Positions 19,646-29,895 of a stretch of DNA of 64,000 bases are shown in pieces. The DNA is from Escherichia phage vB-Eco-KMB38: the sequence record OR525701.1; one strand, 5' to 3'. The notes under the pieces are model-generated. The model made no database searches. It was given only the letters and a program-made list of their open reading frames with translations, and was not told where the DNA came from. A program made the position numbers and the translations under genes. The stretch's first letter is position 1, and every line of letters starts with the position of its first letter.

Positions 19646-19675
19646 ATAGTATCACACATCCATGTGTTTGTAAAC
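19646..19675 (-). promoter_or_regulatory. early promoter (GTTTAC ... TACTAT) overlapping the alt stop
   Basis: rc GTTTACAaac...N18...TACTAT then CATCCTATCAACAAC leader. Confidence 0.55.
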
Positions 19676-21762
19676 TATCCTTGGAAAAATTTAAACGGAA
19701 CTGATTCTAAATCCATTAAAGATGCTAACAATTCCAAACCTTTAGGTGCACTAGTTTTTTCTACAAATGAGGAGAACGATACCAGCTCATCAGATTCGAT
19801 TTCACCCGTCATAGCGACCACCTCGCCTGTTTCCATGAGAACATCACCATCGTAAATGACAGCTTCATCTAACTGGTCTGAAGACATGACTTCAGCTTGA
19901 ATAAATTTAAGGTTGGATTCTAAACCTGCACCAGTGTCAGATGACGCATCTGTAATTTTATTTATCTGCAAGAGAATGCCTCTAGGCAAAATAATTTCTT
20001 GCTCATTAGGGTGATTACTCAACTGTCCTGGATAAATCACGTTAACTTTATGGGCGCCATCAATAGCCCATCCAACGTTAACACGGATTTGTTCTGGCGC
20101 ATGCATAGCTGTTCTTACTTGACTAGGAGAAATAGTAACACCTTCGTCATTATTGTCAATGTTAAGCTCTTTGCGAACTTCTTCAGGAGCAAGTCCAAGG
20201 GCAACGTTCTCTTTAAACCCACCGAAAATAATAGGAGCTAGTGAAGTGGAAACATAGTTTCTGAAGTAGAATACCTTATTTTTAACCATTGCTTCGTAAA
20301 TAGGCATTCTGATAGACTGAGCTCTATATAACGTTAGACCTTCAGGTAAACGATCTCCATTTAAAAACGCCGAATCAAGACCATCAATAGCGCGTTTAAC
20401 TTCATCTTCATCTGCAACATCGTAAAAATCTGGTTTATAACGACCTAACAACATATTATTGATATCTGTATATGCAGAAGAGGCATATTCACGAATAGCT
20501 CGTTTTTCAGCAACAGAGTATTGTTTAGGGTCACGATTCATTGTTATATTAAAGGTGCCTCTAGCTGATTCTCGTGCATAAGTATACATCACATTAGACA
20601 AGAACGCTGATTTACGTTGTTTCCAAGTTCTTTCAGATACTTCAGCTAAAACGTCGTCAGGCAGTTGGAAATTATCACGTCTAAAATCTTCAAACCATTC
20701 GTCTTTAATAGAGTCTGCAATTTCATTTGCAGCTTCAACAAAAGCAGCTAATGCTTTAACAGATGTTGTTTTTTCGGTTTTAATTTTCTTAGCAAACTTT
20801 TCTAAAGTCGGCTTAATAACACTACCATAAGAAACTTCATCGGCAAATTTAAAGGATTCATCAATACGATTATAAATCTTATTTTCGATATCAGCAACTA
20901 AAGTGCCTTTTGCTGTGGACGATGCTTGGGCTAGTACGATTTCATATGCTTCAGGAAGTAATTCGGCTGTAGCCGGGCCACTAACTTCTTTAGCAGAATT
21001 TTCGTATTTCTGGAATAACTCACCTTCTTGACGGTCAGCTTCTAAAGATTGACTTGCTGCAATAGCACGACGAGAAATTTTAGTGCGAGCAATAACAGGC
21101 TTATCTTTACGTTTTTCTTCTACCGCGGCAATAGAACCAGCGATAGCCGTTTCTTTGGTGACCTTTTCACCGGTCTTTTTACTCACATAAACTTCGCCAA
21201 CATCAGAATCTACTTTCGTGTACAACTCTGTGTTAATGTTAGGGATGCCTTTAATATCTTCAATGTTGGCATTTTTACGAACCATCATCACATAGGTGTG
21301 TTTACCTGTGAATTGATACATTGCCGACAATACTTTAAAACGACCACCGGTTTTAGTAGAAACTAAACGAGCAAGAAGAGTTTGAAGCTGCTGTCCACGT
21401 CCTTTCAATTTCTTGGTAGGGAATCTGAACAGAACCGCATCCATACGAAGAGCTTTAACCTGTTCATATACTGTATTGAAAATGGTGTTGATTGCATCAA
21501 TAGGAGCAGGACCAAGGCCGTTTTTCAATTCAGCGAGATTACCCTTTTCAGACAGACTCATAATAACAACATGGGCATATTTGTCGCCAAGTTTAACTTG
21601 TTTTACAGCATCGCCTTCAGAAAGGTAAGAGAATAAGCGAACTACGATGTTTGTATCGATATCACCAATTTTCCAGACTTGTGGAACTTTAGCTTTAGGG
21701 TTCAAATTGACGACAGGAAGACTGCCTTCAGATTCAAACACTTCATTTAATTGTTCAGACAT
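19675..21762 (-). CDS. alt: Alt ADP-ribosyltransferase (packaged, modifies host RNA polymerase)
   Basis: 695 aa (T4 Alt 682 aa); position between gene 54 and ligase; N-terminus MSEQLNEVFESEGSLP. Confidence 0.88.
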   Translation of the reverse strand: MSEQLNEVFESEGSLPVVNLNPKAKVPQVWKIGDIDTNIVVRLFSYLSEGDAVKQVKLGDKYAHVVIMSLSEKGNLAELKNGLGPAPIDAINTIFNTVYEQVKALRMDAVLFRFPTKKLKGRGQQLQTLLARLVSTKTGGRFKVLSAMYQFTGKHTYVMMVRKNANIEDIKGIPNINTELYTKVDSDVGEVYVSKKTGEKVTKETAIAGSIAAVEEKRKDKPVIARTKISRRAIAASQSLEADRQEGELFQKYENSAKEVSGPATAELLPEAYEIVLAQASSTAKGTLVADIENKIYNRIDESFKFADEVSYGSVIKPTLEKFAKKIKTEKTTSVKALAAFVEAANEIADSIKDEWFEDFRRDNFQLPDDVLAEVSERTWKQRKSAFLSNVMYTYARESARGTFNITMNRDPKQYSVAEKRAIREYASSAYTDINNMLLGRYKPDFYDVADEDEVKRAIDGLDSAFLNGDRLPEGLTLYRAQSIRMPIYEAMVKNKVFYFRNYVSTSLAPIIFGGFKENVALGLAPEEVRKELNIDNNDEGVTISPSQVRTAMHAPEQIRVNVGWAIDGAHKVNVIYPGQLSNHPNEQEIILPRGILLQINKITDASSDTGAGLESNLKFIQAEVMSSDQLDEAVIYDGDVLMETGEVVAMTGEIESDELVSFSSFVEKTSAPKGLELLASLMDLESVPFKFFQG

Positions 21763-21818: not shown

Positions 21819-22006
21819 TAATCCACAATCGGGAGCAAAGTACGATAAACTTCAAAATTAGGGCCTTTTTCATACCCATCAACGTTATCTACGAAAACCC
21901 GATACGAATTTTCATTAGGAAAATCTAATATAATCTGAGAGCAAGAGGTGGAAACATCTCCACCATCCTTCTTAGCTACAATAACTGTTTCTAAATAAGC
22001 TTTCAT
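21818..22006 (-). CDS. hypothetical protein, about 62 aa from ATG 22006
   Basis: ORF track start 22027 is a GTG; the first ATG overlaps the ligase stop. Confidence 0.4.
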   Translation of the reverse strand: MKAYLETVIVAKKDGGDVSTSCSQIILDFPNENSYRVFVDNVDGYEKGPNFEVYRTLLPIVD

Positions 22007-23499
22007 TATAAACCTGTCTGGGACCACGGTCCAAATACATCTTCAAACGAATCCGCTTCTGTTTTATCAAAACGGAACCCTTTAATAATTGGAAGGAAAA
22101 TACCTACAGTACCTTCACGGCCTTTAGAATGAACCCAACCATTACATTCACAATCAGCGATACGTCCAATTAATTTACCTTCACGAGCTTCGGCCATTAA
22201 TCGTTCACGGTCTAAATCATGACGCTCGTCTAAAGGAATAAGAACCTTTACACCGTCAACTGTTTTATGAGTTGTATCTTTAAAACCTGAACCACAATCG
22301 GTTGTAATACGACGACAACGTGATACGAGTTCGACACCACCTAATTTGTTAGGGACTTTAGAGTGTTCATAGTATCCTACAACTTCTAAAGCGATATCAA
22401 TAACTTCTTTAAATTTAATTAAATTCTTAGAGCGTTTGTTTTCCCAATATGAATCACGGTTTTTAAGGATAATACCTTCAAGACCTTGGTCAACATATTT
22501 TTTATAAACCACTTTAGCTTCGTCAAGATTACGAACTAACTGATTTTCAATTGGCTCAATTCGCTTAAAGCCTTCAGCCATATTTTCAAGAGCAGCAAAA
22601 CGAACATCGTATTTCTGACCTTTAATTTTGCCGTCAGAATAGACTTCATCTAAAGGAACATAGTCCCAGGCTTGAAGAACCATACCTTCCGCTTCTTTAG
22701 GAGAAATAGTCCCTTGAAGAGATTTATTTGCTAAACCGTTTGAAGTGCTACGGTCTGCAACTTGTACTTCTTCGGATTCTTCATTATCACCAAATAAGAA
22801 CGACAGGTCATTTCCTGAGCTCACAGCCTTTTTAATATCAAATGAATGATAAACTAATTCACCGTCGATTAAAACCCCATTAGGGTGTCTTTCACGAGCT
22901 TCTTTAGTCATTTCCATTAGTTCATCCGCTAATAGAGTAAGACCGTGGTATTCGTTACCGGCACGAGAAAAGAATTGAACACCATCATCGCGAACTTCAG
23001 CGAAACAACGAGCACCATCGGCTTTTAATTGAGCAAATGCGGGCCATTTAATATTTTTAGTAATCAATTTCTCGTCATATGCAGATGCTAACATCTGTGG
23101 CTGCAATTGAATAAGTCCAGGCCACACCTTATTCGCGATAGACACTGAAGCACCTACTTCAAGGTCGCGCATCATTACACGACGAAGGACTTCTACATCA
23201 TCAGGTTTACCATCAGCGATATAACCCATGAGCTCTTTAATTGCCGCATTACCGGTGAGTTTACGAGTGGCTAATGTGAACTCAATAAAATCCAACATGT
23301 CATCTAATTCAAGAAGACCATATGCTTGAGACCTTTCACCTGGTCCTGGCCATTTCTTAATATAATACTGGATACCACGTGCATATGTTAAACGATACAC
23401 ACGTTCAAGTAATTTGTTGTCCTTATTTTTCTTAAGGATTTCTTGTTTTGTTTTAGTAGAACCGATCGCAGCTATTTGGTTTAAAATATCTAAAATCAT
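22006..23499 (-). CDS. 30: ATP-dependent DNA ligase gp30
   Basis: 497 aa; N-terminus MILDILNQIAAIGSTKTKQEILKKNKDN and adenylylation motif KADGAR as in T4 DNA ligase. Confidence 0.96.
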   Translation of the reverse strand: MILDILNQIAAIGSTKTKQEILKKNKDNKLLERVYRLTYARGIQYYIKKWPGPGERSQAYGLLELDDMLDFIEFTLATRKLTGNAAIKELMGYIADGKPDDVEVLRRVMMRDLEVGASVSIANKVWPGLIQLQPQMLASAYDEKLITKNIKWPAFAQLKADGARCFAEVRDDGVQFFSRAGNEYHGLTLLADELMEMTKEARERHPNGVLIDGELVYHSFDIKKAVSSGNDLSFLFGDNEESEEVQVADRSTSNGLANKSLQGTISPKEAEGMVLQAWDYVPLDEVYSDGKIKGQKYDVRFAALENMAEGFKRIEPIENQLVRNLDEAKVVYKKYVDQGLEGIILKNRDSYWENKRSKNLIKFKEVIDIALEVVGYYEHSKVPNKLGGVELVSRCRRITTDCGSGFKDTTHKTVDGVKVLIPLDERHDLDRERLMAEAREGKLIGRIADCECNGWVHSKGREGTVGIFLPIIKGFRFDKTEADSFEDVFGPWSQTGL

Positions 23500-23765
23500 T
23501 TGATGTCCTCGATTTTGGTTACGGTTCTATTATAAGCCACTTCATCTAGAAGCGATTTCAGCGTTTTCTGATAAGTGGTAATCCGTTTACCGAGTCCTTC
23601 AACGTAGTATTCTGAAATGTAGATGAACCCTTGTTCAACACACTCTTTAAATATTTCTGCGTCTTTTACTGAACGAAACAATGGCCAGTCTCGAAAGAAC
23701 ATGTTAACGTGACCGTAGTCACGCGTTGTGTTTTTACCATCTGTAATATCATGAACTACAAACAT
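23496..23765 (-). CDS. hypothetical protein 89 aa (30.1-like)
   Basis: ATG start, overlaps ligase start by 4 nt; synteny. Confidence 0.6.
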   Translation of the reverse strand: MFVVHDITDGKNTTRDYGHVNMFFRDWPLFRSVKDAEIFKECVEQGFIYISEYYVEGLGKRITTYQKTLKSLLDEVAYNRTVTKIEDIK

Positions 23766-23774
23766 AAGTATCCC

Positions 23775-24590
23775 TTAACAATTTATAGACCAAGTCCATT
23801 TAGACGAATCTAAAGGAAAGTTTTGAATCGTCCACCATGGCCGCATATCAGTTGGTCCTGGGGTTCGCCAGGTATACGGATTCGACGGACCACCAATTTG
23901 ATTAGGCCATGCACCTGGACTTGTTGCACCAGATTCTTTAAGCAAATCCGCCAATCGTTTTAAAAGGTCTTCACGATCTGAATCTGAATTATGCTCGGGT
24001 GGAACCAAACGAGATTCAATATCATCCCACGTGTGTACACGTTGTGCAGTGCGAGGAATATCATCACGTTCACCACGAGCCAACCAATAAATCGGTACAT
24101 TAAGAATTTCTGCCGCATGGTCACAATGATGAGCTAAATCGTCAATGTAACAAATCACGTTATATTTTGTTTTAGCTAGTTCGAATAATTGTTCCTTTGA
24201 AGAATCATGACCACACATCATTACTTCAGAGAAAGCGCCAGGGAACAAAGCGTTCAAATTAAATTGTCTATTCAATCGAGCATCAATTGAATCACCTAGC
24301 GCCGTCACGGCTACAAAATTATAGTCTTCTTTTAGTTTATTGATAACTCGAAGAGCATCCGAATAAGGCGCTAAGTAACGAATAAAATCAGAGCGATTAT
24401 ATTTTTCTATTAATTGTTTACCGAGGTTATCATCGGTATTGAATAGTTTACCAGGAGAAATAAATTTTTCGTCCTGAATCATTTTTAAAATATGTTCTAA
24501 TGGAAGATTATATTTTTGGGCAAAATAAGGAAGTCCAGATTGCCAGCTTAAACATACACCATCAATATCAGTCAAAATAGTAGGCTTCAT
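23775..24590 (-). CDS. HAD-superfamily-like hydrolase (30.2-like) with Pro/Trp-rich C-terminal tail
   Basis: N-terminal ILTDIDGV (HAD motif I DxDG) and later YIDD; 271 aa. Confidence 0.65.
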   Translation of the reverse strand: MKPTILTDIDGVCLSWQSGLPYFAQKYNLPLEHILKMIQDEKFISPGKLFNTDDNLGKQLIEKYNRSDFIRYLAPYSDALRVINKLKEDYNFVAVTALGDSIDARLNRQFNLNALFPGAFSEVMMCGHDSSKEQLFELAKTKYNVICYIDDLAHHCDHAAEILNVPIYWLARGERDDIPRTAQRVHTWDDIESRLVPPEHNSDSDREDLLKRLADLLKESGATSPGAWPNQIGGPSNPYTWRTPGPTDMRPWWTIQNFPLDSSKWTWSINC

Positions 24591-25045
24591 AAAGAGTCTC
24601 TTAATAGGTTTAACACATCAATAAATTCAGCTTCGGTTAATATTGTATCATCTTTTGTTAGGTGGCTGGCCATGCTGTGCTTCAAAATTTTTCCTTTCGA
24701 AGCCTGTAATGCATCACGAAACCCCTTGTTTTGGATCGCTGCTTCAAAATATGCATTTGTGTATAATTCTTTCCACGCTTCAGAGTATCTTGAAAATGGA
24801 ACTCCTAACCAGAAGAGAGTCCCATGGTCCTGAGCTCTTGCATAAGACCTTCCTGCTTGCTGTGCAGCCAATCCAGACAACCCAAATATACGTCTTTGTT
24901 GTTCAACATTTTTCACCTTACATCCTTGGAGAAATCCTTCAAGACCTCCGAATTGAATACCATCCATAACAAAAGGCCATTGAGCAAAGTTACTTAATGC
25001 ACATGACGGCCATCTAAAATTGCTTCTAATCTCTAACTCAGACAT
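24587..25045 (-). CDS. NADAR/YbiA-like (DUF1768) domain protein (30.3-like)
   Basis: LSNFAQWPFVMDGIQF...LEGFLQGCKV resembles the YbiA FSNFAAWPIKVDGKTW...SEHYFQAQKF core; start set at ATG 25045 (track start 25054 is a GTG). Confidence 0.6.
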   Translation of the reverse strand: MSELEIRSNFRWPSCALSNFAQWPFVMDGIQFGGLEGFLQGCKVKNVEQQRRIFGLSGLAAQQAGRSYARAQDHGTLFWLGVPFSRYSEAWKELYTNAYFEAAIQNKGFRDALQASKGKILKHSMASHLTKDDTILTEAEFIDVLNLLRDSL

Positions 25046-25250
25046 CTTTAACACTTATAATTTCAACATCAGCCCAATGTCCATAAGCCGGTAGACGGTC
25101 TTCAATAGATAAACCACCGTCATTTTTAAGCATTTTAATTGTCTTGATATATGGTTCATCTTGTGGATGAATAGGCGAGCAGTCAGTCACACGATAAGTA
25201 ACTTCGACCATTTCTGTACCTAACAATTTCTGAATTAATTTCTTTAACAT
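25038..25250 (-). CDS. hypothetical protein 70 aa
   Basis: ATG start; compact operon arrangement. Confidence 0.5.
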   Translation of the reverse strand: MLKKLIQKLLGTEMVEVTYRVTDCSPIHPQDEPYIKTIKMLKNDGGLSIEDRLPAYGHWADVEIISVKDV

Positions 25251-28321: not shown

Positions 28322-28903
28322 TTATTCACCACAAAAGTTTCGGATTTGTTCCCAATTCAGAGAACGAAGATTATTACGAGAGTACTGAATTACTTCAATA
28401 CCAGCTTGTTTTAGAATGTCGGCCCAATTTTCAGGAGATCTGTCATATAATTCTGCGTATACAACCTTTTTAATACCTGACTGCGTGATAGCTTTAGTGC
28501 AATCAGGGCATGGAGAAAGCGTAGTATATAACGTAGCACCTTCAATAGAATTACCTTTACGAGCTGCAAACAAAATTGCATTCAGTTCCGCATGGATTTC
28601 GTTATTAGCAGACCATGCACTATGAGCGGCCCGATGTTCTTTAGCCAAAACAAAATTATCTGCCCGTCCAAATGCTGTAGTGCCTTCTTTATGTCCAGCA
28701 ACGATGACTGGGATTGGTTTATTCTTCAACCAACCATTTTCAGATGCATGTTCACAACAGTTAACACCGCCTGAAGGAGAGCCATTATATCCAGTAGAGA
28801 TAATGCGTCCATCTTTTTCAATGACGGCACCAACTTTCCATGAACAACATTTTGATTCTTGAGAAATCAAATAAGCAATTTGAAGATATGTGCTAGCTTT
28901 CAT
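28322..28903 (-). CDS. cd: dCMP deaminase
   Basis: 193 aa as T4 Cd; zinc-binding motifs HAE and PCxxC (cytidine/deoxycytidylate deaminase fold). Confidence 0.95.
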   Translation of the reverse strand: MKASTYLQIAYLISQESKCCSWKVGAVIEKDGRIISTGYNGSPSGGVNCCEHASENGWLKNKPIPVIVAGHKEGTTAFGRADNFVLAKEHRAAHSAWSANNEIHAELNAILFAARKGNSIEGATLYTTLSPCPDCTKAITQSGIKKVVYAELYDRSPENWADILKQAGIEVIQYSRNNLRSLNWEQIRNFCGE

Positions 28904-29895
28904 TATTGAACCTTATTAATATAAGTTAACAGCTCTTTAGTTTGTTCCCAACTGATGCACGCATCGGTAATGGAAACGCCATATGACATATTATCAGAAA
29001 TTTTTTGATTTCCTTCATGTAGGAATGATTCTATCATAATTCCTTTGACCAAATCATTAGCTGCTAAATTTTTACCAATACCAATTTGATTACTATAATG
29101 CCCATCAGCGTTTGCATGGCTACAGTCAACCATTACATAATGATTCAGACCTACTGCCCTTGCTTTGTTAGAAGCTTCTTGAATATCAGAAGAATGATAG
29201 TTCGGGCCGTTGGTCCCGCCACGCAATACGATATGCGTATTCTGATTACCTTCAGCTTCAACAATGCCTACAGTACCATCGACGTCCATACCCATATACC
29301 GATGAGGCCAGGAGGCACTATACATCGCGTCTGTAGCTACTTTAATAGAACCATTGGTTGCGTTCTTGAAGCCTACGCACATCGGTAGACCTGAAGCAAT
29401 TTCACGATGTGTCTGACTTTCAGTCGTACGGGCGCCAATAGCAACCCATGAGAAAATACCAGAAAGATACTTAATCGTGAATGGGTCCAATACTTCAGTT
29501 GCTAATGGAAGTCCCATACGTAGAAGTTTACGACACAATGTTCGTGCAACTATAAGACCGTGGTTCATATCAAAACTTCCGTCAAGATATGGATCATTTA
29601 CAAGACCTTTCCAACCTACGGTAGTTCGAGGCTTTTCAAAATAAACGCGCATCACTAACAGAACATTAGGAAGACGAGTTTGAAGTTCAGCCAGACGTTT
29701 GCCGTATTCAACAGCAGCAATAGGGTCATGAATTGAACAAGGACCTACAACAATAAGTTTGCGTGGGTCTTCACCGTTCATAATCGAATTAACTTGTTCG
29801 CGATGAGAAGCCACTTGTGATGCGTAAGCTTCCGACAAAGGAATAATCTCAGCCAGTTCTTTTGGAGAAATAAGTTTTCCGACGATAGGTAACAT
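28903..29895 (-). CDS. 3-deoxy-D-arabino-heptulosonate-7-phosphate (DAHP) synthase, class I (AroF/AroG/AroH-like)
   Basis: 330 aa with LIVVGPCSIHDP, VMRVYFEKPRTTVGWKGL, AIGARTTESQTHRE, VGFKN, MVDCSHAN, SITDACISWE motifs of E. coli DAHP synthases; AAGGA RBS; stop overlaps the cd ATG. Confidence 0.9.
   Translation of the reverse strand: MLPIVGKLISPKELAEIIPLSEAYASQVASHREQVNSIMNGEDPRKLIVVGPCSIHDPIAAVEYGKRLAELQTRLPNVLLVMRVYFEKPRTTVGWKGLVNDPYLDGSFDMNHGLIVARTLCRKLLRMGLPLATEVLDPFTIKYLSGIFSWVAIGARTTESQTHREIASGLPMCVGFKNATNGSIKVATDAMYSASWPHRYMGMDVDGTVGIVEAEGNQNTHIVLRGGTNGPNYHSSDIQEASNKARAVGLNHYVMVDCSHANADGHYSNQIGIGKNLAANDLVKGIMIESFLHEGNQKISDNMSYGVSITDACISWEQTKELLTYINKVQ

Follow-up and report, generated by a model that had tools for sequence, protein, structure and literature searches.

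The adfN locus

The window, by which we mean the whole 64,000-nucleotide stretch of Escherichia phage vB-Eco-KMB38 (OR525701.1) that was analyzed, carries at positions 24587–25045 of the minus strand an orthologue of T4 gene 30.3 (adfN). Its product is a 152-amino-acid phage-type NADAR protein, predicted from its sequence to be a DNA guanine-ADP-ribose glycohydrolase. The frame runs from an ATG at 25045–25043 to a TGA at 24589–24587, exactly the interval given in an initial annotation made from the letters alone, which had left out the strand. Both peptides quoted in that annotation occur in the product (LSNFAQWPFVMDGIQF, residues 17–32; LEGFLQGCKV, residues 35–44). An in-frame GTG lies just upstream at 25054; because it is not conserved in T4, we place the start at the ATG.

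The genes follow one another as in T4 and RB69 (alt, alt.1, 30, 30.1, 30.2, 30.3, 30.4, and so on). The Alt gene (19675–21762; PF03496) and the ATP-dependent DNA ligase gene (22006–23499) lie close to adfN, as had been claimed, and gp30.1 (DUF3045) is encoded at 23496–23765. Both immediate neighbors of adfN overlap it. The start of gene 30.2 (23775–24590, minus strand) shares an ATGA with the adfN stop, and the stop of gene 30.4 (25038–25250, minus strand; 70 amino acids; phrog_2042) overlaps the adfN start by 8 nucleotides (ATGTCTGA). The TGA of 30.4 thus falls within the first adfN codons, an arrangement common to KMB38, T4, and RB69.

Gene 30.2 encodes a HAD-superfamily hydrolase of 271 amino acids with a core of about residues 1–200 and a variable tail rich in tryptophan and proline. 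The protein begins MKPTILTDIDGV, with the DxD of HAD motif I at D8/D10, in agreement with the motif reported earlier for this frame. Motifs I–IV (DxD, T/S, K, and DD) and the Rossmannoid HAD fold are all present, and gp30.2 is a genuine, complete HAD-fold hydrolase. Among the Pfam HAD models it reaches 15 bits with HAD_2, under the 23.8 cut-off, and no NCBIfam model matches it. The tail (approximately 70 C-terminal residues, window 23775–23990) varies in length and is modeled with low confidence; many homologues stop at about 200–220 amino acids and do not have it.

In T4, a middle promoter located within adfN, PM30.2, drives gene 30.2. The equivalent site, located from the X53848 annotation and by alignment, is at 24642–24667 on the minus strand. 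Alignment with T4 reveals that the −10 element TACAAT is retained and that there are five substitutions in the −30/MotA-box region. Given this divergence, gene 30.2 may rely more on read-through in KMB38. A scan for sigma-70 promoters and terminators between 21.7 and 27.3 kb found sites no more frequently than in shuffled sequence, and for this reason we claim no promoter from it. T4 is also annotated with an internal 75-amino-acid frame, ORF 30.3′, in an alternative frame of adfN (window 24682–24909, minus strand). In KMB38 a stop at codon 35 breaks this frame, so we rejected the idea that ORF 30.3′ yields a second, conserved product in this phage.

Elsewhere in the window, a full-length class-I DAHP synthase gene (aroF/G/H type; TIGR00034, E = 3.5e-128) occupies 28903–29895 on the minus strand. 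It adjoins the dCMP deaminase gene (cd) on the promoter-proximal side, where T4 has no such gene. DAHP synthase is the first enzyme of aromatic amino acid synthesis. The gene occurs in 212 phage records, mostly T4-like phages of Escherichia and Klebsiella, and is annotated as a “putative aldolase” in Bas47.

Identity of the gene and its phage relatives

The adfN product matches PF08010 (“Phage_30_3”) over the full model length (E = 2.6e-69; 231.8 bits, cut-off 36). It is equal in length to T4 gp30.3 and identical to it at 147 of 152 positions (97%). All five differences (R74H, P89E, V120I, I125M, and G128H) fall in variable columns. The frame is T4 gene 30.3, which has already been characterized, in the copy carried by a new isolate. 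Homologues are nearly universal across T4-superfamily phages (1510 phage records), and in nearly all of these roughly 1,500 records the gene is labeled “hypothetical protein.” Over a 25-kb stretch, the window matches Escherichia phage PTK with 100.0% identity and AlbertHofmann (Bas47) with 99.9%. Bas47 is a Mosigvirus, in the same genus as RB69, and its AdfN protein is identical to that of KMB38.

The wider family of gp30.3-type NADARs comprises 1656 representatives (50% identity, E ≤ 0.001). Some are multi-domain proteins in which as many as three stretches match NADAR (P0233, 480 amino acids), and some are extended at the N or C terminus by more than 300 amino acids (representatives P0233–P0380). 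Such members are consistent with the length of the phrog_652 profile, which has 296 columns and exceeds the span of AdfN (columns 126–272).

NADAR homology and fold

The initial annotation assigned the frame to the NADAR/YbiA-like proteins, and the assignment is correct on the strength of family-level homology, fold, and published data for the T4 orthologue. De Souza and Aravind had already placed gp30.3 in the NADAR family in 2012 (cited in PMC11543638 and PMC11125620). A direct match to PF08719, which had been suggested as a check, was not obtained at E ≤ 0.1 or E ≤ 1, because Pfam models the adfN clade separately as PF08010. Searched alone and directly against PDB sequences, NCBIfam, and PADLOC, the protein likewise found no match.

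Homology becomes apparent at the level of the family. Twenty of 55 full-length, diverse relatives match PF08719 unaided (best E = 1.5e-7), and an HMM built from the 55 members retrieves E. coli YbiA (2b3w) with E = 0.0038 against all PDB sequences. This profile aligns the motif stretch quoted in the initial annotation to YbiA residues 29–83, so that the parallel drawn there goes beyond chance. Comparison of the family with the genuine K-12 YbiA by hhalign gives a probability of 93.6% (E = 2.1e-7) over residues 15–121. An AlphaFold2 model of AdfN built from the family alignment (pLDDT 93.1, pTM 0.88) has the YbiA fold, in which small beta-hairpins flank an alpha-helical core. In a Foldseek comparison, E. 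coli YbiA ranks as the closest solved fold. The lack of a PF08719 match or of the conserved acidic catalytic residue had been named as grounds for discarding the NADAR assignment; neither overturns it, since relatives reach PF08719 and the acidic residue, E36, is present.

Catalytic residues and allele state

The codon of the catalytic glutamate E36 was verified at 24938–24940 (minus strand); the residue is invariant in 55 family members and aligns with the glutamate of the YbiA SEHYFQ motif by both profile and hhalign. The catalytic lysine K43 (codon verified at 24917–24919, minus strand) is shared by at least 90% of family members and aligns, by the same two methods, with the lysine of YbiA QAQK. 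E36 and K43 are the counterparts of the conserved NADAR glutamate and lysine, E88 and K95 in the E. coli C7 NADAR. In T4 AdfN, the substitutions E36A and K43A and an RB69-type truncation each impair function (PMC11825919). A third, putatively catalytic residue, the histidine H123 that marks phage NADARs, is encoded at 24677–24679 (minus strand, codon verified) and is invariant in 55 sequences. When the hhalign alignment is extended without gaps, H123 lies opposite E125 of YbiA. A histidine in the last strand is the published signature of phage NADARs, as against glutamate in YbiA-type and aspartate in DarG1-type proteins (PMC11543638, PMC11125620).

Residues 138–152, encoded at 24590–24634 (minus strand), comprise the C-terminal helix of the model (138–151) and the last residue, and are intact. 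The truncation phenotype indicates that the C-terminal part of AdfN is needed for full activity (PMC11825919). Since KMB38 belongs to the genus of RB69, we looked for the RB69 defect. In the RB69 gene (locus L010, 8268–8681), an additional T at gene position 411 introduces a premature stop, so that the protein loses its last 15 residues and with them the terminal helix; this T is absent from the window and from T4 adfN. KMB38 adfN is an intact, full-length allele.

In phages SV76, UGJNEcP4, NR1, and RPN226, adfN has been called as truncated (86–109 amino acids) or merged with the domain of a neighboring gene (P0008, P0014, P0017, and P0051). These calls suggest either recurrent natural inactivation or errors of sequencing or annotation.

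Published function and predicted role in KMB38

The function of this NADAR was established by others for T4 gp30.3 in 2024–2025, and we add nothing new to it here. Johannesman et al. (Nat Commun 2025, PMC11825919) traced the resistance of T-evens to DarTG1 back to gene 30.3, which they renamed adfN and which is both necessary and sufficient against DarTG1 in T-even infection. They found that ectopic adfN(T4) restores plating of RB69 on DarTG1 hosts, an effect impaired by E36A, K43A, and the RB69-type truncation, and that purified T4 AdfN strips ADP-ribose from DarT1-modified DNA and does not bind DarT1 itself. An independent group found that the T4 enzyme hydrolyzes guanine-ADPr and not thymine-ADPr in vitro (PMC11125620); in later work by that group, it was inactive on cytidine-ADPr. 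In a genome-wide T4 transposon screen (HIDEN-SEQ preprint), insertions in 30.3 disappear when DarTG1 is present (log2FC −7.25). The initial annotation had named both ADP-ribose removal from guanine in DNA and a counter to DarT-type toxins as possible roles. The first is borne out by experiments on the 97%-identical T4 orthologue (PMC11825919, PMC11125620), and the second by the anti-DarTG1 experiments with T4 AdfN (PMC11825919).

All Tevenvirinae tested by Johannesman et al., including Bas35–Bas47, are DarTG1-resistant. Bas47 has its other factor, AdfA, in the inactive R164 form (PMC11825919), and its resistance is therefore likely due to AdfN. From the 97% identity to the T4 protein, the intact residues, and this Bas47 phenotype, we predict with a probability of roughly 0.92 that KMB38 AdfN strips ADP-ribose from phage DNA and thereby counters DarTG1. 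The gene would be expressed early, within the tightly packed block of genes from 30.7 to 30. As host DarT1 ADP-ribosylates guanine bases of the replicating phage DNA, AdfN would bind the ADP-ribose moiety on the modified guanine, and E36, K43, and H123 would cut the N-glycosidic bond that joins the ribose to the base. ADP-ribose would be freed and unmodified DNA restored, so that replication could continue and DarTG1-mediated abortive infection would fail.

Alternative readings

An improbable alternative is that AdfN acts mainly on soluble immune signals derived from ADP-ribose, or on ADP-ribosylated RNA, and that its effect on DarTG1 is a side effect. Iyer et al. used comparative genomics to propose such substrates for phage NADARs, all NADAR families also remove G-ADPr from RNA in vitro, and the 1510 T4-superfamily records amount to a wider distribution than expected for a response to a single defense system. 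Direct genetics and biochemistry, however, link AdfN to G-ADPr in DNA and to DarTG1 (PMC11825919, HIDEN-SEQ), and none of the papers covered here reports a soluble substrate.

It is very unlikely that AdfN is instead a housekeeping N-glycosidase that destroys reactive intermediates of the riboflavin pathway, like bacterial and plant YbiA/COG3236. The Foldseek ranking of YbiA, the name “YbiA (DUF1768 family)” given to several homologues by JGI, and the documented riboflavin role of NADARs (PMC11125620) are in keeping with this idea. Against it, the last-strand glutamate that defines YbiA is replaced by an invariant histidine, H123, and the published phylogeny sets the AdfN clade beside DarG1 and not YbiA. 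Furthermore, T4 gp30.3 hydrolyzes G-ADPr in DNA (PMC11825919) and becomes essential only when DarTG1 is present (HIDEN-SEQ). E. coli YbiA (PF08719, PDB 2b3w) also differs from the phage enzyme in its setting, a chromosomal, LexA-controlled operon with a housekeeping/riboflavin role, and in its ability to remove C-ADPr, on which the phage enzyme is inactive.

The initial annotation implied that the neighborhood of adfN is significant. One form of this idea, that AdfN and gp30.2 constitute a two-enzyme module in which gp30.2 processes the released ADP-ribose or is itself the T-even factor that potentiates AdfN, merits very little credence. The overlapping stop and start codons, the completeness of the HAD enzyme, and the near-equal phage distribution (1438 records for 30.2, 1510 for adfN) speak for it; a similar distribution is nevertheless expected for any two quasi-core genes of the T4 superfamily. 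Adjacency is lost in distant phages: Aeromonas 44RR2.8t, Vibrio D484, Ralstonia RSP15, and Salmonella Melville all lack a 30.2 homologue in the region up to 4 kb from adfN. None of 148 representatives is a NADAR-HAD fusion. T4 30.2 moreover has its own middle promoter inside adfN (X53848). Transposon disruption of T4 30.2 is neutral in the DarTG1 screen (71 sites, log2FC −0.12, p 0.61; HIDEN-SEQ), which largely refutes gp30.2 as a partner of AdfN. A functional link to alt and ligase was rejected as well: alt insertions are neutral in the same screen, and in distant phages adfN lies among tRNA genes or elsewhere. That adfN lies near alt and ligase therefore reflects no more than the usual T4 gene order.

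Finally, there is next to no chance that KMB38, a Mosigvirus like RB69, carries a decayed and non-functional allele of the RB69 kind, as the truncated or fused variants in several deposited phages might suggest, since its full-length frame has no extra T at 411 and keeps all conserved residues, which refutes this reading from the sequence, and since Bas47, with the identical protein, is DarTG1-resistant despite a non-functional AdfA (PMC11825919).

Comparison with related systems

The closest known system to KMB38 AdfN is AdfN(T4) itself (PF08010; Johannesman et al., 2025; Toxins 2024, 16:208), a 97%-identical orthologue that likewise lies upstream of ligase, with 30.4 and 30.2 on either side. 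The two have E36, K43, and H123, the C-terminal helix, and the 8-nucleotide overlap with 30.4 in common. They differ in the five conservative or surface substitutions, in the broken ORF 30.3′, and in the diverged MotA box of the middle promoter in KMB38.

DarG1, the NADAR antitoxin associated with DarT1 (BC4488 family; e.g., E. coli C7, Geobacter lovleyi, PDB 8bat), is more distinct. Unlike DarG1, AdfN has no DarT gene nearby and is flanked by 30.4 and the HAD gene 30.2. It starts approximately 10 residues before the NADAR core and has no N-terminal extension of about 50–67 amino acids. The third catalytic position is aspartate in DarG1 and His123 in AdfN, and T4 AdfN gives no rescue of DarT1 toxicity in uninfected cells. 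AdfM (T4 Tk.4), an anti-DarTG2 macrodomain factor, resembles AdfN in being a phage homologue of the hydrolase domain of an antitoxin. However, its fold (a macrodomain) is unrelated, it is presumed to act on DarT2 thymine adducts, and its locus is a different one that, by inferred synteny with T4, is outside the window.

AdfN(Bas32) and AdfN(Bas60), from T5-like and Vequintavirinae phages, are likewise orphan phage NADARs that are specific for guanine adducts and reverse DarTG1. They fall in NADAR clades other than that of AdfN(T4) and represent independent acquisitions. They are also active without infection and to the benefit of unrelated phages, and hence need no T-even-specific factor.

Gene 30.4 and the postulated T-even factor

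AdfN(T4) works fully only in T-even infection: besides failing to rescue uninfected cells, it rescues non-T-even phages weakly (PMC11825919). Johannesman et al. postulated a T-even factor on this basis, and for the same reason the mechanism outlined above for KMB38 AdfN is incomplete and may need a further phage factor. The adjacent gene 30.4 bears on this point. In HIDEN-SEQ Data S6, the header of the DarTG1 table gives two T4 genes as significant, and these are 30.3 and 30.4. For 30.4 the values are 21 sites, log2FC −1.79, and an adjusted p of 0.014. The text of the preprint discusses 30.3 only and not 30.4. The upstream genes 30.6 and 30.7 are not depleted under DarTG1.

KMB38 gp30.4 itself has no match among the Pfam models searched; its homologues carry PF26911. 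The protein is restricted to T-evens of the Escherichia/Shigella/Yersinia type (721 records), in line with the host range to which the context dependence of AdfN points. Together with the significance of 30.4 under DarTG1 and the conserved 8-nucleotide overlap, this restriction fits a role of gp30.4 as the T-even-specific cofactor that Johannesman et al. postulated, an idea that we put forward as a tentative and rather unlikely one.

A polar effect of 30.4 insertions on adfN is probably the better explanation of the depletion. No Shine-Dalgarno-like motif was found before the adfN start in T-evens, and distant homologues with intergenic spacers have G-rich motifs there. Given this absence, translation of adfN probably depends on ribosomes that finish 30.4, with 30.4 a likely partner in translational coupling. 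The HIDEN-SEQ transposon has no terminator but contains stops in each of the three reading frames, so that an insertion in 30.4 would break the coupling. The depletion of 30.4 is also partial (−1.79 vs. −7.25 for 30.3) and comes from one replicate pair, and between KMB38 and T4 gp30.4 is only 46% identical compared with 97% for AdfN; both points favor the polar effect. RNA folding at the 30.4/adfN junction gave no structure beyond chance (z = −0.10 in the window and +1.44 in T4), and with z scores in this range it neither supports nor refutes sequestration of the start codon.

We also considered gp30.4 as a detached N-terminal extension of DarG1, i.e., a “split DarG1,” and found no support for this. 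The gp30.4 profile finds nothing relevant in PDB sequences, gp30.4 is unlike the heterogeneous N-terminal extensions of 148 gp30.3-like representatives, and it has no PADLOC match.

Implications

The transposon signal in 30.4 bears on a question left open by the AdfN paper, namely which T-even factor potentiates AdfN. For annotation, KMB38 adfN is useful as a seemingly functional copy of a known counter-defense gene that is mostly labeled “hypothetical protein.” The state of the adfN allele further leads to the prediction that PTK/Bas47-like phages, unlike RB69, would grow on DarTG1 hosts.
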